From positions 1 through 13,231 of the IMG/VR virus record IMGVR_UViG_638341085_000008: DNA of 13,231 nt. One strand, given 5' to 3'. The notes below the pieces were generated by a model that did not search any database, had not been told where the DNA came from, and worked only from the letters and a program-made list of their open reading frames with translations. Made by a program: the position numbers and the translations under genes. This DNA comes from a virus (Duplodnaviria > Heunggongvirae > Uroviricota > Caudoviricetes). This document shows positions 58 to 13,195 of this stretch, piece by piece (position 1 is the first letter of the stretch; each line of letters begins with the position of its first letter).

Positions 58-119
58 AATCTCCTTTAATATCCGTCACGTCCACCGCCAGACATACTGC
101 TCTGAATTTACAAAGGAGT

Positions 120-461
120 ATGATCATGTCACAGACCCAGTCCGATACTTTTACGCTGTCTTATCCTTTCACCACTGCTGCAGGTACCAGAATTGAACAG
201 ATTGAACTGAAACGCCTGACAGTAAAAGACCTGAAGCAGGTGCGCAAAATCAACAAAGACCCGGCAGACTGGGACGAACCACTGATTGCCCGTAGCACCG
301 GTATCCTCCCGGAAGACCTCGATAACATGGATCTTGCCGACTATATGGAGCTGCAGAAACGATTTCAGAAAATCACTGGGCTGGGCAAGAGCGACAAAAA
401 CACTGATGCAGGCGCAGGGCCTGCTGGCGAGATGGTTCAGGTTTCAGCCGGGGGAGATTGA
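120..461 (+). CDS. tail assembly chaperone (P2 gpE / lambda gpG-like)
   Basis: 113-codon ORF immediately upstream of the tape measure gene; AGGAG at 114-118 is better spaced for the in-frame ATG at 126 than for ATG 120; overlapped by a shifted-frame extension as in tail chaperone pairs. Confidence 0.7.
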   Translation: MIMSQTQSDTFTLSYPFTTAAGTRIEQIELKRLTVKDLKQVRKINKDPADWDEPLIARSTGILPEDLDNMDLADYMELQKRFQKITGLGKSDKNTDAGAGPAGEMVQVSAGGD

Positions 462-543
462 TGCCCTCGATACTGACGATCTGGAGATGTGGCTGGAGCA
501 GGCTGAAGAGCAAATCAAAAGCGAGTTCGGCGACAATCAGTAA
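448..543 (+). CDS. E'-like frameshift extension of the chaperone (fusion product about 140 aa)
   Basis: Frame +1 relative to the chaperone stays open to TAA 541-543; protein-like acidic sequence only from about 451 (GEIDALDTDDLEMWLEQAEEQIKSEFGDNQ); G5 run 450-454 lies two codons before the chaperone stop TGA 459-461. Confidence 0.45.
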   Translation, partial: PGEIDALDTDDLEMWLEQAEEQIKSEFGDNQ

Positions 544-635: not shown

Positions 636-3101
636 GTGGCCAGTGAATTTTCAGTCGGCGTCATTATTGGCGGCATTGTCGGGAGCAGCTTCCGCTCAGC
701 CGTCAGTGGCACCCGACGCGCCCTTGATTCCCTTGGTGATACCTCCCGCCGTCTGCAGGAACGCCAGAATGCCTTAACCCGGGCAACAGAACGTTATGGT
801 CAACTGGGTTCTTCCCGGATGCAGCATCTCAACAGCGAGTTGCTGCGGGTAAGCCGCACCATGGAGCAAATTGAACGTCAGCAGCGCCGTCTGTCAGCAG
901 TATCAGCCACCGGTGATGCGTTGAAGGCTAACCGCCTGGCGCTCTATGGTCAGGGTGCAGAAACCTATGCTATTGGCAGAACGCTGGGCGCACCGGTCAT
1001 GGCCTCGGTTAAACAATATGCCTCGTTTGAATCACAGTTGCGGGATATCAGTGTCACAGGAGACCTGGATGCAAAACAGGAACGTGCAATTGGCCTGGCT
1101 ATCAGACAGGCCTCGCTGAAGGTTAACCAACTGCAGGAGTCTCTGTTAGGGGGAGTCGGACAATTAGTTGCTGATGGTATGGCCCCCGAACGGGCAGCAA
1201 CGTTTGCAGAGATGCTTGGAAAGACCGCTACAGCAACCAAAGCCGATATGACCGACCTTGCCAAAATGACTTATGCCTTCAGCGATGCACTCAGAATCAC
1301 TGATGCGAAAGAACTTGAACAGGCGTTTGGCATTGCGGCAACAGGAGCCAAACTTGGGTCATTTGAGCTGAAGGATATGGCAAAAGCATTACCCGGTATG
1401 GCGAAAGCCTTCGCTGCTCGTGGTATTTATGGAAAAGATGCGATTACCCAGATTGTTGCCAGTCTGGAGGTCGGTAAAGGTAGTGGCTCTGCAGAGGAAG
1501 CGGTCACCAATATGTCCAACTGGCTGGCAGCAATGGGCCGCGGAGATACCATCCAGAAATATGCTAAAGCCGGGGTGGATTACCAGGGGTCAATGCAGAA
1601 TTACGTCGCTCAGGGTTTTTCGCAGTACGAAGCTTCACTGATGATTGCCAACCGTTTTATCGACAGTAAAGGCAAAGCGTTTTTGCAGCAATGGAAAGCT
1701 GCAGGAGCAAGAGGCGATCAGGAAGGTCAGCAGAAACTCATGGAGTCATTTGGTCTGGCTGAGGTCTTTACCGATATTCAGACTGTCAACCATTTACTGT
1801 CAATGCGACAGGGCTGGGATAAATACCTTTCCAGTAAGCAGGAAATGAATGCTCCGGCTGCAATGTCTACCCTGGATAAGGATGCTGCAAAGCAGAATGA
1901 TACGCTTGAAGGTCGCTGGCGCAGAATGCAGATCGGCTTTAATGATTCTGCTATCAGCATCGGGCAATCCTTGCGTCCGGCTTTGCTCCAGTTGGGTGAA
2001 ACATTTATTCCTTTAATGGACAGCGTCGGCAAATGGATAGCGGCAAATCCGCAGCTCGTCAGCAGCACCATAAAGGTTGTGGGCGCATTACTCGCTTTCA
2101 GGATGGCCACTATCGGTCTCAAGTTTGGGCTGAATCTCCTTATTTCCCCCTTTGTAAGCGTCTGGAAAAATGCTGTTTTACTTCGGGCCAACTGGCTTCG
2201 TCTGATGCTCGCACTGGGGGAAGGCGGTAAACTCCGCTGGCTGGTGACAGGCTTTGGTGCCGTCGCCAGAGGAACCAGAACACTGGGGGGGGTGCTCTCA
2301 GGGGGGCTGGTTCGCGGAATTATGAGCGCCGGGCGTGCCGTTCTCTGGATTGGCCGGGCGCTGCTGATGAATCCCATCGGTCTCGTTATCACCGCCGTCG
2401 CGGCAGCAGCTTACCTTATCTACCGCAACTGGGGCGCTGTCAGTAGCTGGTTTAAACAGCGCTGGGCTGACATTCAGGAAGCCTTTAACGGCGGCATCGC
2501 GGGAATTGGTAAACTGCTGGTTAACTGGTCTCCGGCAGGTCTGCTTTATAAAGCCTTTGCGGCTGCGCTGAAATATCTCGGCGTTGATTTGCCGGCGAAA
2601 TTCACCGACTTCGGTGGTCATCTTATTGACGGGCTGATAAATGGCATCAGAAACAAATGGGCGTCACTGAAAACCAGCATAACCGGAATGGGTGACAGCA
2701 TCAGTGACTGGTTCAGCGAAAAGCTGGGCATCCATTCACCGAGTCGCGTGTTTATAGGCTTTGGTGACAATATCGCGCAGGGTGCCGCCATTGGCCTGCA
2801 ACGGACCACTCCGCTTGCTGCACTGGCCGGGCAGCGCCTGGCCGCTGAAATGACACCGGATGTTCCCCGTATCCCGTCGCCGGAAATCATGGCTGCCGGA
2901 TATTCAGGCCGTGGCGCAACTGCAACCGGCGGTGGAGCGTCTGGCGGTATCCAGGTCAGCTTTAATCCTCATTTTTTCCTCAATGGTAAGGAAACCGCAG
3001 CGCCTGCCGGGCTGGCTGGTGCCCTGAATATGAGCCTGCATGAGCTGGAAAAAATGCTGGAGCGTCTGCTGGCTCAGAAACAACGTAAGGAGTACAGCTG
3101 A
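636..3101 (+). CDS. tail tape measure protein (P2 gpT / Mu gp42-like)
   Basis: 821-aa ORF, GTG start with GAGGAT 7 nt upstream; position directly after the chaperone pair; Ala/Gly/Leu-rich with hydrophobic glycine-zipper-like stretches; stop overlaps next start (TGATG). Confidence 0.85.
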   Translation: MASEFSVGVIIGGIVGSSFRSAVSGTRRALDSLGDTSRRLQERQNALTRATERYGQLGSSRMQHLNSELLRVSRTMEQIERQQRRLSAVSATGDALKANRLALYGQGAETYAIGRTLGAPVMASVKQYASFESQLRDISVTGDLDAKQERAIGLAIRQASLKVNQLQESLLGGVGQLVADGMAPERAATFAEMLGKTATATKADMTDLAKMTYAFSDALRITDAKELEQAFGIAATGAKLGSFELKDMAKALPGMAKAFAARGIYGKDAITQIVASLEVGKGSGSAEEAVTNMSNWLAAMGRGDTIQKYAKAGVDYQGSMQNYVAQGFSQYEASLMIANRFIDSKGKAFLQQWKAAGARGDQEGQQKLMESFGLAEVFTDIQTVNHLLSMRQGWDKYLSSKQEMNAPAAMSTLDKDAAKQNDTLEGRWRRMQIGFNDSAISIGQSLRPALLQLGETFIPLMDSVGKWIAANPQLVSSTIKVVGALLAFRMATIGLKFGLNLLISPFVSVWKNAVLLRANWLRLMLALGEGGKLRWLVTGFGAVARGTRTLGGVLSGGLVRGIMSAGRAVLWIGRALLMNPIGLVITAVAAAAYLIYRNWGAVSSWFKQRWADIQEAFNGGIAGIGKLLVNWSPAGLLYKAFAAALKYLGVDLPAKFTDFGGHLIDGLINGIRNKWASLKTSITGMGDSISDWFSEKLGIHSPSRVFIGFGDNIAQGAAIGLQRTTPLAALAGQRLAAEMTPDVPRIPSPEIMAAGYSGRGATATGGGASGGIQVSFNPHFFLNGKETAAPAGLAGALNMSLHELEKMLERLLAQKQRKEYS

Positions 3102-5929: not shown

Positions 5930-6649
5930 ATGCGGTTATCAAGATCCTTATGTAAAGTAGTTGGCGATGTCATTGCTAACTCAGGCTCTCATGCAGCTTT
6001 AGATACGTTATTTCTTACTTCGGGAGCACCAGGAAACCCTCCGGCAGGATCTCATAGTACAAAATGGAAAGACTGGTTATTTCTTGCAGGGCAAGATCCA
6101 GATACAGATAGTCTGGCAGTTCTGGGCGGAGTAATTGAGGAGTTTATGGATTTACCTCCAAAAGAAGGTACTCCCGAATATGCAGAATGGAAGGAAAAAC
6201 GAGACAGAATTGAAGCTGTGTTACAAGAGAATGGACTTAGATATTATCGTTTTGGTCGAGTGTTGCCTGAAGGCCACATCCCGTCACACAATATGGATTA
6301 CCCAGAGACCATAATTACTTATCAACAGCCAGTAATGCCAGAAAAAGTTGAGAACTTACTGGAAAGGCTGGTCAAAGGCTTACAGCGAGCAATGCATCCA
6401 CTTACTCATAGGCGAAAAGGAAGCCAGTCATTATCTTTTAGCAATGAATATGACGTGCAAGACCTTCTCCATGCATTGCTCAGACCATGGGTTCAGGACA
6501 TCCGCCCAGAAGAGTTTACTCCAAGTTACGCTGGTTCAAGTACTCGAATGGATTTTTTGTTACCTGCGCATAAATTAGTACTGGAAACCAAAATTGTTCG
6601 TGATCGTTCTCATGCAAAGAAAATCGGCGATGAACTTATTATCGATTAG
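5930..6649 (+). CDS. IS2-truncated cargo gene, 5' part (239 codons); restriction-endonuclease-like D-x10-E-x-K signature, function unknown
   Basis: ATG 5930 with GGGGA 5 nt upstream; low-GC sequence; motif D208 (6551-6553), E219 (6584-6586), K221 (6590-6592) in RMDFLL...LVLETKIV; reading frame ends in the TAG that is the first 3 nt of IS2. Confidence 0.7.
   Translation: MRLSRSLCKVVGDVIANSGSHAALDTLFLTSGAPGNPPAGSHSTKWKDWLFLAGQDPDTDSLAVLGGVIEEFMDLPPKEGTPEYAEWKEKRDRIEAVLQENGLRYYRFGRVLPEGHIPSHNMDYPETIITYQQPVMPEKVENLLERLVKGLQRAMHPLTHRRKGSQSLSFSNEYDVQDLLHALLRPWVQDIRPEEFTPSYAGSSTRMDFLLPAHKLVLETKIVRDRSHAKKIGDELIID
6642..6646. repeat. IS2 target site duplication, left copy (TCGAT)
   Basis: TCGAT directly flanks the IS2 left end; identical to 7978-7982. 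Confidence 0.9.
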
Positions 6650-6737
6650 ACTGGCCCCCTGAATCTCCAGACAACCAGTATCACTTAAATAAGTGATAGT
6701 CTTAATACTAGTTTTTAGACTAGTCATTGGAGAACAG

Positions 6738-7103
6738 ATGATTGATGTCTTAGGGCCGGAGAAACGCAGACGGCGTACCACACAGGAAAAGATCGCAATT
6801 GTTCAGCAGAGCTTTGAACCGGGGATGACGGTCTCCCTCGTTGCCCGGCAACATGGTGTAGCAGCCAGCCAGTTATTTCTCTGGCGTAAGCAATACCAGG
6901 AAGGAAGTCTTACTGCTGTCGCCGCCGGAGAACAGGTTGTTCCTGCCTCTGAACTTGCTGCCGCCATGAAGCAGATTAAAGAACTCCAGCGCCTGCTCGG
7001 CAAGAAAACGATGGAAAATGAACTCCTCAAAGAAGCCGTTGAATATGGACGGGCAAAAAAGTGGATAGCGCACGCGCCCTTATTGCCCGGGGATGGGGAG
7101 TAA
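6738..7103 (+). CDS. insC: IS2 OrfA (InsC) transposase regulatory/DNA-binding protein
   Basis: Sequence recognised as IS2 InsC ([24 protein letters not shown]...); ATG 6738 is the likely true start, the longer ORF from 6693 is an upstream extension. Confidence 0.95.
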
Positions 7104-7966
7104 GCTTAGTCAGCCGTTGTCTCCGGGTGTCGCGTGCGCAGTTGCACGTCATTCTCAGACGAACCGATGACTGGATGGATGGCCGCCGCAGTCGTCACAC
7201 TGATGATACGGATGTGCTTCTCCGTATACACCATGTTATCGGAGAGCTGCCCACGTATGGTTATCGTCGGGTATGGGCGCTGCTTCGCAGACAGGCAGAA
7301 CTTGATGGTATGCCTGCGATCAATGCCAAACGTGTTTACCGGATCATGCGCCAGAATGCGCTGTTGCTTGAGCGAAAACCTGCTGTACCGCCATCGAAAC
7401 GGGCACATACAGGCAGAGTGGCCGTGAAAGAAAGCAATCAGCGATGGTGCTCTGACGGGTTCGAGTTCTGCTGTGATAACGGAGAGAGACTGCGTGTCAC
7501 GTTCGCGCTGGACTGCTGTGATCGTGAGGCACTGCACTGGGCGGTGACTACCGGCGGCTTCAACAGTGAAACAGTACAGGACGTCATGCTGGGAGCGGTG
7601 GAACGCCGCTTCGGCAACGATCTTCCGTCGTCTCCAGTGGAGTGGCTGACGGATAATGGTTCATGCTACCGGGCTAATGAAACACGCCAGTTCGCCCGGA
7701 TGTTGGGACTTGAACCGAAGAACACGGCGGTGCGGAGTCCGGAGAGTAACGGAATAGCAGAGAGCTTCGTGAAAACGATAAAGCGTGACTACATCAGTAT
7801 CATGCCCAAACCAGACGGGTTAACGGCAGCAAAGAACCTTGCAGAGGCGTTCGAGCATTATAACGAATGGCATCCGCATAGTGCGCTGGGTTATCGCTCG
7901 CCACGGGAATATCTGCGGCAGCGGGCTTGTAATGGGTTAAGTGATAACAGATGTCTGGAAATATAG
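7061..7966 (+). CDS. insD: IS2 OrfB (InsD) transposase catalytic domain; full transposase made as InsCD by -1 frameshift
   Basis: Sequence recognised as IS2 InsD; sits in the -1 frame relative to insC; slippery A-AAA-AAG at 7055-7061. Confidence 0.95.
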
Positions 7967-10227: not shown

Positions 10228-11172
10228 ATGGCAAATCTACCTGAAACCCCACAGTGGGAAGACGGCATCTACCAGATTGAGGTCTCTGACCCCGTTCTGG
10301 GCGGGCCTGACGGAATTTCTAACCGTCAGGGTAAACAACTGGCCAGCCGCACGCTGTACCTGAAGCAACAGGTTGAAAAAGGCGGGGCTGACCTTGCGAA
10401 ACACATCGCGGCAGCAGACCCGCATGCCCAGTATGCACCGAAAGCCAGTCCGGCATTCACCGGCACACCAACAGCACCTACACCTGCAAATGGCGATAAC
10501 AGCAAAAAGCTGGCGACGACGGAGTTTGTGGCCAAAGCACTTGCGGCGCTTGCAGGCAGCGCCCCTGAGACACTGGATACGCTTAAAGAGCTGGCTGACG
10601 CTCTCGGTAATGATCCAAACTTTGCGACTACGGTACTGAACAAGCTGGCGGAAAAGCTGGCTAAAGACCAGAACGGCGCAGATATTCCTGATCCTGCGCT
10701 GTTTGTCAAAAACCTTGGTTTGGGAGAAGGTACTCCAGCTATTGGCGTTCCGTTCTTCTGGCCCTCCGCGGCAATGCCAAATACTGTAATCGACAGCTGG
10801 TCCAGTATGGTGTTTTTGAAGTTCAACGGGGCGAAATTTTCTGCCACTGATTACCCTGTGCTGGCGAAAGTGTTTCCTTCGCTGGTATTACCTGAAGCCC
10901 GCGGTGATTTCATTCGTATCTGGGATGACGGGCGAGGTGTAGACGGTGGTCGCGAATTATTAAGCTGGCAGGCAGCTACAAACTTTTCTCAGTTTGCCGG
11001 GAATATAGGCGATGGTGCGGGCCACGCAATTAATTTTCATGATGGTATCGCCGGAAATCAGCCAGGATTTTCACGATTTAATTTCACCAGTAACTCTGTG
11101 GGTGATGGTGTGAATTTTGTTGCCGTCAGACCGCGAAATATTGCATTTAACTTTCTGGTGAGGGCTAAATGA
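10228..11172 (+). CDS. tail fibre protein: constant N-terminal part plus currently expressed variable C-terminal part (Sv)
   Basis: 314-aa ORF; GGGAG 10214-10218; N-terminus with QWEDGIYQIE motif typical of P2 H / Mu S fibres; a recombination site lies inside the gene at 10703-10728. Confidence 0.85.
   Translation: MANLPETPQWEDGIYQIEVSDPVLGGPDGISNRQGKQLASRTLYLKQQVEKGGADLAKHIAAADPHAQYAPKASPAFTGTPTAPTPANGDNSKKLATTEFVAKALAALAGSAPETLDTLKELADALGNDPNFATTVLNKLAEKLAKDQNGADIPDPALFVKNLGLGEGTPAIGVPFFWPSAAMPNTVIDSWSSMVFLKFNGAKFSATDYPVLAKVFPSLVLPEARGDFIRIWDDGRGVDGGRELLSWQAATNFSQFAGNIGDGAGHAINFHDGIAGNQPGFSRFNFTSNSVGDGVNFVAVRPRNIAFNFLVRAK
10703..10728. other. left recombination (crossover) site of the invertible segment, hix/gix-like
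   Basis: TTGTCAAAAACC-TT-GGTTTGGGAGAA matches the 26-bp TTnTCnnAAACC-nn-GGTTTnnGAnAA pattern; 10715-10729 is an exact inverted copy of 12542-12556. Confidence 0.6.
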
Positions 11173-11765
11173 TGACCCCAATTTTTGATGAAAATGGACT
11201 GGCTACAGTGCCGGGCGATATGCGTTGTTTTTATTATGATGCAGTAACGTATGAATATACGGGCTGGTCTGATGAATATATTAATACTGGTGTAAGTATG
11301 CCCGCCTGTTCCACTGGTATTGACCCGGGCGAAAACATTCCGGGAAAAGTGGCAGTATTTACGGGTAAGGGATGGAGCCATGAAGAAGACCATCGCAATG
11401 AGACTGTTTACTCAACAGAAAATGGTGCAACTGTTACAGTGGATTATATCGGTGCCATCAAAGACGGTTATGTCACGCTTTCACCGTTAACGCCATACGA
11501 TAAATGGGATGGTGAGAAATGGGTGACAGATTCTGAGGCACAACACGGTGCCGCAGTAGAAGCGGCAGAAGCACAGCGCCAGTCACTTATTGATGCAGCA
11601 ATGGCTTCCATTAGTCTGATTCAGCTGAAATTACGGGCCGGGCGGAAGCTGATGCAGGCAGAGACCTCCCGACTTAACACTGTGCTGGATTACATTGACG
11701 CGGTGACGGCAACAGATACCAGCACCGCGCCGGATGTCATCTGGCCTGAACTGCCGGAGGAGTAG
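11169..11765 (+). CDS. tail fibre assembly protein (Tfa; P2 gpG / Mu U-like), currently expressed orientation
   Basis: 198-aa ORF overlapping the fibre stop; C-terminal motif LDYIDAV...DTSTAPDVIWP shared with the inverted paralogue. Confidence 0.8.
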   Translation: MMTPIFDENGLATVPGDMRCFYYDAVTYEYTGWSDEYINTGVSMPACSTGIDPGENIPGKVAVFTGKGWSHEEDHRNETVYSTENGATVTVDYIGAIKDGYVTLSPLTPYDKWDGEKWVTDSEAQHGAAVEAAEAQRQSLIDAAMASISLIQLKLRAGRKLMQAETSRLNTVLDYIDAVTATDTSTAPDVIWPELPEE

Positions 11766-12177
11766 GCCATTCAATATCTGGCGCACTGGAAGTATCGACC
11801 AGCTCCAGTGCGTCCAGATAATCCAGCCACAAATTATATTGCGCCAGTTCCTCACCTTTCAGACGACCAATAGCCGCTTTACCAGCCCATTGTTTACTGT
11901 TCATATAATCGTTGGCCTGATTAATCAATTGCTGCTTTTTCAGTTCGGCTGCAGCAATCTGTTCCTCATGTGTTGGTGGTGGAATTTCAGACCATGCAGG
12001 AAAACCATTTTCTCCAGCGATACGGATTTTTCCTTTCGGCGGTAATCCGGAAAACTCAATATACACTTGCTCATCAACTTCAACAGCATCATCTGGCCAT
12101 GAGTCAGCTTGCGTGTAATCCTCTTTCATCTCCAAGGGATAGAAAGAGTTTGTAGTCGCGGAATATATGTAATTCAT
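11737..12177 (-). CDS. alternative tail fibre assembly protein (Tfa'), inverted orientation
   Basis: 146-aa ORF on the minus strand with GGAG upstream of ATG 12177; C-terminus LDYLDALELVDTSSAPDIEWP resembles Tfa. Confidence 0.75.
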   Translation of the reverse strand: MNYIYSATTNSFYPLEMKEDYTQADSWPDDAVEVDEQVYIEFSGLPPKGKIRIAGENGFPAWSEIPPPTHEEQIAAAELKKQQLINQANDYMNSKQWAGKAAIGRLKGEELAQYNLWLDYLDALELVDTSSAPDIEWPTPPAVQAR

Positions 12178-12203
12178 TTTTCACTCCATAAAGTTAAAAG
12201 AAA

Positions 12204-12554
12204 TTAACACCCTAATGCGAAAAATGAAGCACCGATACCGGGTACGCCTGCTCTGGAAATAAATTTCACCGGGTCCTGGTTATAACCGGCACAAGCTATA
12301 TAGCCAACATTTGCACTGCCGGGAGTGTAATCCTGAGTTGCAAATACCCGCAGACATCTATTCGGAAATGCAATCGGAAAATAGGTTACTGTGTCCTGAG
12401 ACGTCAGCGAAACATCAATTGGCCCCCATTGAATAATTAAACCGGATGGCAATTTTTGATATCCAGTACCTGAAACAGAAAGCGTGAAGCTACCCATATC
12501 AGGTATCTGATTCGTCCCTGTCCCCACATTCCTTTTTGCCGCTTCTCCCAAACC
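12204..12554 (-). CDS. alternative tail fibre C-terminal segment (Sv'), promoterless and start-less until inversion
   Basis: Minus-strand frame is open from the right crossover site to stop at 12204-12206; after inversion it fuses in frame to the fibre constant part (...[16 protein letters not shown]...); the ORF-track start is a TTG inside the crossover site. Confidence 0.65.
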
Positions 12555-12568
12555 AACGTTTTCGTCTT
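12543..12568. other. right recombination (crossover) site of the invertible segment
   Basis: TTCTCCCAAACC-AA-CGTTTTCGTCTT; inner half identical as inverted repeat to the left site, outer half degenerate; 55 nt upstream of the invertase start. Confidence 0.6.
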
Positions 12569-12622
12569 AACTCCCACCTATACCAGCTATGTATTTTTAA
12601 CAAAACAAAGAGGATATTTTTC

Positions 12623-13195
12623 ATGCAAATTGGCTACATTCGTGTGTCAACAAATGACCAGAATACAGATTTACAACGAAACGCACTGAACTGCGCAGGA
12701 TGTGAACTGATTTTTGAGGATAAAATCAGCGGAACAAAGTCAGCCCGACCGGGATTGAAAAAGCTGCTCAGAACGTTATCAGAAGGAGATACGCTCGTTG
12801 TCTGGAAGCTGGATAGGCTGGGCAGAAGCATGAAACACCTTATCACTCTTATTGAGGAACTGCGGGGAAAAGGGGGTAATTTCCGTAGTCTTACAGACAG
12901 CATTGATACGTCAACACCCATGGGACGTTTCTTTTTTCACGTCATGGGGGCTTTAGCGGAAATGGAGCGCGAATTAATAGTTGAACGAACACTGGCCGGA
13001 CTTGAGGCAGCACGTGCACAGGGGCGTATTGGCGGACGCCGTCCGAAACTGACAAAAGAGCAACATGAACAAATAGCAAGGCTGATCAAAAATGGCTATA
13101 GCAGGAAACAGTTGGCAATTATTTACGATATCGGTATATCGACGATTTATCGTTATCACCCTGTAGAGGAACTCCAAACTCAAGCTAAGTTGTAA
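12623..13195 (+). CDS. serine DNA invertase, Gin/Pin/Cin/Hin family
   Basis: 190-aa ORF from ATG 12623 (GAGGAT RBS 12609-12614); N-terminal resolvase motif GYIRVSTNDQ with catalytic Ser, C-terminal helix-turn-helix; the 12536 ORF-track start runs through the crossover site and has no RBS. Confidence 0.9.
   Translation: MQIGYIRVSTNDQNTDLQRNALNCAGCELIFEDKISGTKSARPGLKKLLRTLSEGDTLVVWKLDRLGRSMKHLITLIEELRGKGGNFRSLTDSIDTSTPMGRFFFHVMGALAEMERELIVERTLAGLEAARAQGRIGGRRPKLTKEQHEQIARLIKNGYSRKQLAIIYDIGISTIYRYHPVEELQTQAKL

Follow-up and report, generated by a model that had tools for sequence, protein, structure and literature searches.

The tail assembly chaperone gene analyzed in this study lies in a 13,231-nucleotide (nt) stretch of DNA (IMG/VR record IMGVR_UViG_638341085_000008, hereafter the window), whose 13.2 kb represent the tail module of a prophage that combines a Mu-like head with a P2-like tail. 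A comparison across about 150 relatives suggests that this gene, like its P2 counterpart E/E′, encodes both a short chaperone and a longer E+E′ fusion. It is likely that the fusion arises by a +1 P-site slip of tRNA-Phe on the tetramer UUU_C at positions 363–366, to judge from sequence conservation around this site. The features on which this reading rests are as follows:

126–461, plus strand: tail assembly chaperone gene (P2 gpE/FluMu gp41-like), frame 0, 111 amino acids (aa), with its stop TGA at 459–461
360–362, plus strand: CGA (Arg) codon just 5′ of the slip codon, invariant in enterobacterial relatives though rare and degenerate
363–366, plus strand: proposed +1 slip site TTT_C (UUU_C), assigned from its invariance, from stop bracketing and from homology to the P2 junction
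367–543, plus strand: E′ extension in the +1 frame by translation, 58 codons (RKSLGWARATKTLMQAQGLLARWFRFQPGEIDALDTDDLEMWLEQAEEQIKSEFGDNQ) and the stop TAA 541–543
424–522, plus strand: GpE-like (P2 E′) domain in the +1 extension, weakly matched by PF06528 at fusion residues 102–134

The three-frame translation and the listing of open reading frames (ORFs) show that the +1 frame (positions that equal 1 modulo 3) is open from 286 to 543 and ends at TAA 541–543. Two sets of relatives were compared. The close set comprised 77 IMG/VR relatives (59–100% identity), with 57 unique IMG/VR relatives among them, and three GenBank phages, giving 80 loci. The distant set was obtained by searching a five-sequence profile against GTDB species genomes, which yielded 69 further loci from Enterobacterales, Burkholderiales, Neisseriales, and others. 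The frame offset in the wider set was determined for 76 loci by tblastn mapping of the N-domain versus the E′ domain.

All 77 IMG/VR relatives have the +1 layout; in L076 and L080, one nucleotide is deleted close to the G-run discussed below. Of the 76 loci in the wider set, 73 have an offset of +1 and one has −1; the remaining two (L086 and L087), which are 1-nt-deletion variants, are in-frame. Hosts with the +1 layout include Escherichia, Klebsiella, Salmonella, Pectobacterium, Brenneria, Lonsdalea, Ralstonia, Pandoraea, and Pseudomonas, among others. A first-pass annotation of the window had proposed that the chaperone is extended in the +1 frame up to TAA 541–543, that a +1 or −2 event is needed to reach the extension, and that an alignment of homologues would reveal which downstream frame is conserved. 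Both proposals agree with our results, since it is the +1 and not the −1 frame that is conserved, in close relatives as well as in the 73 loci of the wider set.

The −1 frame was described in the same annotation as closed by a stop and then rich in Trp, Arg, and Cys, which direct reading confirms (CRRRACWRDGSGFSRGRLMPSILTIWRCGW...):

404–406, plus strand: TGA closing the −1 frame, invariant in close relatives

The statement that only the +1 frame extends past the chaperone stop was too strong, because the −1 frame is open again from 407 to 646; this stretch lacks conservation among relatives.

Substitutions among close relatives change phase along the gene. Variable columns up to 386 are mostly third positions of frame 0, variation between 387 and 407 occurs in all phases, and from 408 to the end variable sites fall almost only on positions divisible by three, i.e., the third positions of the +1 frame. 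Judged by this substitution pattern, purifying selection acts on the +1 frame from 408 onward, and the phase switch argues that this frame is translated well before the G-run. Conserved +1 sequence begins by about 403–408 (TLMQAQGLLARWFRFQPGE), much earlier than the position of about 451 from which the frame had been thought to become protein-like. The +1 product of 406–540 matches phrog_8286 (E = 1.6e-29), indicating that the +1 frame is a real and recurrent coding frame.

Profile comparisons link both halves of the predicted fusion to the P2 E/E′ family. The chaperone N-domain matches PF10109 (Phage_TAC_7) with 79.8 bits (E = 1.5e-22), above the curated cut-off of 25 bits, and phrog_166 (tail protein) with E = 1.7e-32; PF10109 is matched by all 27 predicted fusions of the family. 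The E′ part of the window gives a weak match to PF06528 (Phage_P2_GpE) of 16.4–17.4 bits (E = 0.003–0.006), under the 23-bit cut-off, and PF06528 is matched by 19 of 27 family members, with a best E of 8e-8. A profile of the 27 predicted fusions aligned with P2 gpE+E′ over 119 columns covering both domains (hhalign, 96.2% probability, E = 2.2e-9). NCBIfam hidden Markov models gave no match for E, E′, or the fusion, and a PDB sequence search with the family profile returned nothing at E ≤ 1.

The slip site was located by its conservation and by the distribution of stops across the family. The codons of the window at this site are CGA TTT CAG (360–368). All 72 unique +1 loci, which range from Enterobacterales to Burkholderiales and Pseudomonas, have TTT and then C at the aligned position, and TTTC is the sole invariant block in a 33-sequence alignment of the region. 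The codon before TTT takes at least 14 forms (CGA, GCA, GCC, GCG, TCC, ACA, AAA, TTT, ATG, TGG, and others), and the codon after it encodes Q, L, R, or H and always starts with C. The octamer CGATTTCA (360–367) is invariant in the 57 unique close relatives, in which only CGA 360–362 and TTT 363–365 are wholly invariant among the 77 degenerate frame-0 codons between 150 and 386; the third positions of those 77 codons have a median variability of 13 sequences. CGA precedes TTT in 57/57 unique IMG/VR relatives and is not kept in distant relatives (GCA, GCC, GCG, TCC, and others). TTT_C itself is kept in distant +1 relatives, for instance as CGA TTT CAG in a Salmonella prophage, CGA TTT CTG in Ralstonia phage YO107_2, and GCA TTT CAA in Pseudomonas phage Bise. 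In Enterobacterales, the CGA 5′ of UUU may be a context element that tunes the shift, through the E-site or through I:A wobble.

Stops in both frames bracket the site. In every locus, the open +1 stretch reaches back to TTT_C, and stops occur immediately 5′ of TTT_C; the frame opens merely 8 nt 5′ of TTT in L083, L128, L130, L131, L132, L146, L147, and L149, the last of which reads ...TGA ACG CCT TTT TTC.... On the other side, frame 0 stops one codon past TTT in L142 (TTT TTT CGC TGA), 15–27 nt past TTT in L084, L127, L135, L137, L140, L144, and L146, and often 1–9 codons past TTT_C in Betaproteobacteria. If the family shares one site, these stops confine it to the interval from about −8 to +6 nt around TTT, in which nothing but TTT_C is conserved. 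In 73 of 76 loci, the 3′ part of the chaperone gene is overlapped by a second, out-of-frame ORF without a conserved start codon, and TTT_C supplies the conserved slippery sequence inside the overlap that is expected of a G/GT-type pair. Across the family, a pyrimidine comes after the zero-frame UUU, which allows tRNA-Phe(GAA) to re-pair in the +1 frame.

A ribosomal shift into the +1 frame might instead occur elsewhere in the 367–405 linker, e.g., at the A5 run, or proceed by −2. The linker is poorly constrained, so close relatives alone cannot fix the site, and loci with TTT TTT C (L129, L142, and L149) could in principle slip by −2. We nevertheless consider such a shift unlikely. No other conserved motif is present in 367–405. 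In most loci, tRNA-Phe could not re-pair by −2, since the bases that it would meet there vary (GAU, CCU, GCU, and others). The A5 run, which had been offered as a weaker alternative site, does exist in the window:

396–400, plus strand: A5 run, not conserved; a lineage with TAG at 396–398 still keeps the +1 E′ ORF

We rejected it as a candidate because it is absent in KP12-like relatives (KP12 has GACGAAAAC) and PhiKM-like relatives (PhiKM has AACCAGGGC). The lineage just mentioned (L047 and L048) encodes a 90-aa form of the chaperone (P0022), is represented on 914 contigs, and is widespread in E. coli; its stop bounds the site to before 396. Because this lineage shortens the chaperone and keeps the +1 E′ ORF intact, the frame-0 tail past about residue 90 appears dispensable. 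The GCA-GGC-GCA-GGG region at 408–420 was also tried as a +1 (GGG_G) or −2 (GCG_CA) site and rejected, since positions 414 and 420 vary as synonymous sites of the +1 frame, which is already selected there.

The first-pass annotation favored a G5 run just 5′ of the frame-0 stop as the slip site. Its coordinates, about 90 nt 3′ of TTT_C, were correct, with GGG GGA as the frame-0 codons:

450–454, plus strand: G5 run, which in the E′ domain spans the last base of the Pro110 codon, the whole Gly111 codon, and the first base of the Glu112 codon; not the conserved slip site

According to this explanation, tRNA-Gly would slip by +1 or −2 on GCC GGG GGA (450–455) to give ...VSAG(G)EIDALD.... The run looked attractive because the verified −2 site of Mu (CGG GGG CGA) is also a G5 run; in addition, frame 0 of this window does reach it, and database ORFs fused exactly at the run exist (P0003–P0005, P0007–P0009, and locus L080). 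Several lines of evidence make a slip there highly improbable. The frame-0 stop moves among relatives and lies 5′ of the run in many of them, as TAG at the equivalent of 438–440 in 40 of the 80 close loci and at 396–398 in the lineage on 914 contigs. The run is degenerate or absent in seven unique relatives, being G4 (CCT/CCA-GGGG) in L036, L046, L062, L074, and L077 and missing in L078 and L079 (CCGAGTGAG), and likewise in all distant relatives with PSE or PTE. Selection on the +1 frame starts 5′ of it, at 408. The run also lies inside the E′ domain: the +1-frame segment around it, LARWFRFQPGEIDALDTDDLEMWLEQAEEQIKS, aligns with P2 'VIFHWPPSELYPMSLTELITWREKA', and P110-G111-E112 is equivalent to the P2 'PPSE' within the GpE-like domain. 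A fusion at the run would delete the conserved LLARWFRFQ segment and lack the invariant L102, A103, F106, and F108. A Mu-type −2 shift on the G-run was rejected as a candidate on the same stops, degeneracy, and 5′ conservation of the +1 frame. Finally, fused ORFs occur at several homopolymers (A5, G3–4, and G5), mostly in single or few and often short contigs, which fits indel errors.

Such fused ORFs also bear on the idea that the two-frame layout reflects decay or sequencing error and that the functional gene is a single in-frame fusion. In-frame versions do exist (L076, L086, L087, and P0001–P0010). They are rare, their junctions differ, and they arise at homopolymers or by nearby 1-nt deletions, whereas hundreds of independent genomes share an identical +1 layout and relatives are present in 636 complete E. 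coli genomes. Moreover, a constitutive fusion would leave no short chaperone, the form required in excess by lambda (PMC5009743). We therefore regard this explanation as extremely improbable; the in-frame database ORFs are most simply indel errors or mutants. Among annotated fusions in a large protein database, we found only ORFs fused by 1-nt deletions, mostly at homopolymers, and none fused at TTT_C.

The 1-nt-deletion variants (L076, L080, L086, L087, and P0001–P0010) join E and E′ at A5 396–400, at G3–4 near 378–400, or at G5 450–454; one further junction lies 14 nt 5′ of TTT_C, and that of P0010 lies much further 5′. The G5 run is the commonest junction among them (L080 and P0003–P0009), which suggests that it is an indel hotspot in sequencing or replication and not a ribosomal slip site.

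The E′ region could also be translated without any frameshift, as a separate 45-aa protein starting at ATG 406. The Prokaryotic Genome Annotation Pipeline (PGAP) annotates it in this way, calling 406–543 a 'GpE family phage tail protein'; ATG 406 is present in the window and in some relatives, and phrog_8286 is made up of such short gene calls. In other relatives, codon 406–408 is ACG, ATT, ACA, or AAA, and no Shine–Dalgarno (SD) sequence precedes ATG 406. No positionally conserved start was found over 72 loci, 8 of which lack ATG, GTG, or TTG anywhere in the open +1 stretch. The extent of that stretch, open back to TTT_C in every locus and bounded by stops immediately 5′ of it, speaks against an independent gene, as does the conserved +1-frame linker motif P-x-x-L-W, which already lies 5′ of 406. 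The P2 homologue, moreover, is made as a fusion. Separate synthesis of E′ thus seems quite unlikely. Initiation at ATG 406 or at CTG/TTG/ATG 403 was rejected as a candidate for want of a conserved start codon or SD.

A number of observations weigh against a +1 slip on UUU_C. Substitutions between 367 and 386 follow frame 0 (ITGLG), so the +1 linker there is weakly constrained, and the assignment of the site leans on cross-lineage bracketing and on the assumption of one homologous site family-wide. TTT makes up 44–69% of the other Phe codons in these genes, and the Phe codon bias test was weaker than expected; as TTT is not rare for Phe, its invariance alone is moderate evidence. The first +1 codon would be AGA, which is rare in E. 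coli, so the shift should be disfavored. We found no stimulator: RNAalifold on 33 diverse sequences returned 0 pairs and no conserved structure, a single-sequence fold of 355–470 gave z = −0.19, no conserved SD-like element lies 5′ of the site, and the 0-frame A-site codons (CAG, CTG, and CGC) are not rare. The fusion and the UUU_C shift are predictions from sequence, and this prophage copy, whose baseplate module carries an IS2, may have lost the ability to build tails.

A +1 slip on UUU_C would produce two chaperone proteins from one start codon. The majority of ribosomes would stay in frame 0 from 126 to TGA 459–461 and make the 111-aa E-like chaperone. In a minority, peptidyl-tRNA-Phe (anticodon GAA) on UUU 363–365 would re-pair with UUC 364–366 and slip by +1, exchanging a G:U wobble pair on UUU for a G:C pair on UUC, and translation would continue as AGA AAA TCA ... 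to TAA 541–543. The product would be a 138-aa E+E′ fusion (140 aa if counted from ATG 120), in line with the first-pass estimate of about 140 aa, a size that does not depend on the position of the shift. The predicted fusion consists of 80 N-terminal residues ending in ...LQKRF, followed by the 58-residue extension given above, in which a linker of about 19 residues leads to the C-terminal GpE-like domain; the predicted Glu-C junction peptide is LQKRFRKSLGWARATKTLMQAQGLLARWFRFQPGE. The analogy of lambda G/GT and P2 E/E+E′ suggests that the N-domain common to both products would coat the tape measure protein, with the E′ domain recruiting subunits of the tail tube.

The event is probably a low-efficiency intrinsic slip, because there is no conserved structure, SD-like element, or rare A-site codon; a low and fixed ratio of long to short product would then be set by the intrinsic shiftiness of UUU_C. 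In bacteria, UUU_Ynn is reported to be prone to +1 shifting, as in YopN-TyeA (PMC5009743); UUU_C is the site of PA-X (PMC3498833), and an E. coli cell-free screen lists TTT_C among efficient +1 tetramers (bioRxiv 10.1101/2025.10.02.679949). A G/GT-type pair needs only a low level of the fusion: lambda makes about 30 gpG per gpGT (PMC5009743), and the Mu shift has an efficiency of about 2.2% (PMC3498833).

The closest known system is gpE/gpE+E′ of P2, for which a programmed −1 frameshift at T_TTT_TTG is described (Christie et al., 2002, as cited in PMC3091744). In AF063097, this experimentally defined −1 site, GGT TTT TTG, is annotated at 19685, at the same junction after the N-domain and on a Phe codon. 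Both systems share a PF10109 N-domain, a PF06528-like E′ domain (a weak match in the window), a gene position between those of the tube and the tape measure, a slip (here a proposed one) on the Phe codon UUU at that junction, and similar product sizes (91 and 142 aa in P2 versus 111 and 138 aa predicted here). They differ in direction (−1 in P2 versus the proposed +1 here) and in the site itself (a heptamer versus the tetramer UUU_C). The frame-0 tail past the site is here long, variable in length, and apparently dispensable, and a 92-nt gap with a hairpin precedes the tape measure gene, whereas P2 E′ overlaps T.

A −1 arrangement was observed in one relative, Pasteurella phage AFS-2018a (L085), in which E′ lies in the −1 frame and TTT_C is absent; its end, CAA AAG GGA AAG TAA, suggests an A_AAG-type −1 site. 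The same protein family thus appears to use both slip directions.

Mu gp41 is likewise a PF10109 tail chaperone (the Pfam name lists 'E, or 41 or 14') with an extension in the +1 frame. Mu uses a verified −2 shift (about 2.2%) on the G5 run CGG GGG CGA, eight codons before its stop, in contrast to the proposed UUU_C site here, and its extension has no evident GpE-like motif; the resemblance between the G5 runs of Mu and the window is coincidental. Lambda gpG/gpGT also has a shared N-terminus, a fixed low ratio, and genes just 5′ of the tape measure gene, but has no detectable sequence similarity and shifts by −1 at G_GGA_AAG. YopN-TyeA of Yersinia and PA-X of influenza A (UCC_UUU_CGU) share the P-site tetramer UUU_C/U and the proposed re-pairing of tRNA-Phe, and the relatives L135 and L148 read TCC TTT CGC or TCT TTT CGC, close to PA-X. 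Their proteins and biology are unrelated to those of tail chaperones, and PA-X may use the rare A-site codon CGU, whereas no such conserved context is present here.

Tail chaperone frameshifts are textbook examples of recoding, and P2 E/E′, described as −1, is the reference case for contractile tails. Versions with −1, −2, and +1 shifts are all recognized (PMC5009743). The first-pass remark that a +1 or −2 chaperone shift would be unusual holds only in part, because −2 is verified in Mu and +1 is annotated in hundreds of actinophage chaperone genes. No description of a UUU_C +1 site in the E/E′ family was found in the searchable literature or annotation, a scope that does not include Xu et al. 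(2004). We tentatively propose, with slightly less than even confidence, that a large and widespread branch of P2 E/E′ (about 12% of complete E. coli genomes and many Beta- and Gammaproteobacteria) slips by +1 on UUU_C without a stimulator where P2 slips by −1 on T_TTT_TTG, so that the Phe slip codon would be kept and the direction reversed, that pipelines mis-annotate the pair as two genes, and that CGA may be a context element in Enterobacterales.

Such a branch would provide a natural and readily tested case of programmed +1 frameshifting in bacteria, on a minimal UUU_C site, and homologous genes with differing slip direction at one junction would be useful for studying what sets direction and efficiency. 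In annotation, the 'phage tail assembly protein' and the 'GpE family phage tail protein' would become one joined coding sequence with a ribosomal slippage flag in hundreds of enterobacterial genomes. The comparison also cautions against reading +1 sites from a homopolymer beside a stop codon; bracketing by stops across relatives locates them better.

The neighborhood of the chaperone gene agrees with its assignment to a contractile-tail module. The mechanical ORF call spans 120–461 (113 aa), whereas the true start is likely ATG 126 and not ATG 120, because an SD precedes it and relatives have only the ATG equivalent to 126; PGAP also begins the gene at ATG 126, giving 111 aa.

115–118, plus strand: Shine–Dalgarno GGAG, 7 nt 5′ of ATG 126, by direct reading
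636–3101, plus strand: tape measure protein gene, partner of the chaperone pair (phrog_28, E = 2.9e-119; PF10145)

The chaperone gene sits between the tail tube and tape measure genes, and sheath and tube genes were found 5′ of it in KP12, PhiKM, and E. coli 503025. Genes for gpU-, gpX-, gpD-, and gpV-like proteins follow the tape measure gene, and after them come gpW, J, I, and tail-fibre genes. Identical DNA is present in E. coli chromosomes, 3′ of Mu-type head genes (DUF935 portal and Mu F-like) and of sheath and tube genes. Relatives of segment 100–660 occur in 636 of 5426 complete E. coli genomes (about 12%), and one source labels relatives of the window chaperone 'FluMu_gp41'.

Two hairpins flank the chaperone region. 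A stem-loop, CAGCCGC-CAGT-CGCGGCTG, is located at 561–579 within the gap of 92 nt that separates the E′ stop from the start of the tape measure gene; in KP12, PhiKM, and Phi06_2974B, its stem is kept and its loop is variable. It lacks a T-tract and is thus not a typical terminator, and P2 has no such gap. A GC-rich hairpin at 35–50 (AGGGGCTCCGGCCCCT), followed by the T-rich tail TCTTCTT, is terminator-like and lies 5′ of the chaperone gene, after a small ORF that follows the tube gene.

Further 3′, the gpV-like gene and the gpW gene are separated by the insertion sequence IS2, whose left end (TAGACTGGCCCCCTGAATCTCC) starts at about 6648. Its orfA (6693–7103) and orfB (7061–7966) are accompanied by a classic −1 slip site of their own, A_AAA_AAG at 7054–7060. 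IS2 directly follows ORF 5930–6649, the C-terminus of which covers just positions 1–100 of the 150 in the DpnII/MboI restriction endonuclease family; the insertion may therefore have truncated this ORF. E. coli 503025 has both IS100 and IS2 at this position. The prophage copy in the window may be defective.

The region 11169–13195 looks like an invertible tail-fibre segment, in an arrangement similar to the G-segment and Gin of Mu:

11169–11765, plus strand, and 11737–12177, minus strand: tail-fibre assembly genes on opposite strands
12204–12551, minus strand: gp53-like fibre C-terminus
12536–13195: serine recombinase or invertase gene (Resolvase and HTH_7)

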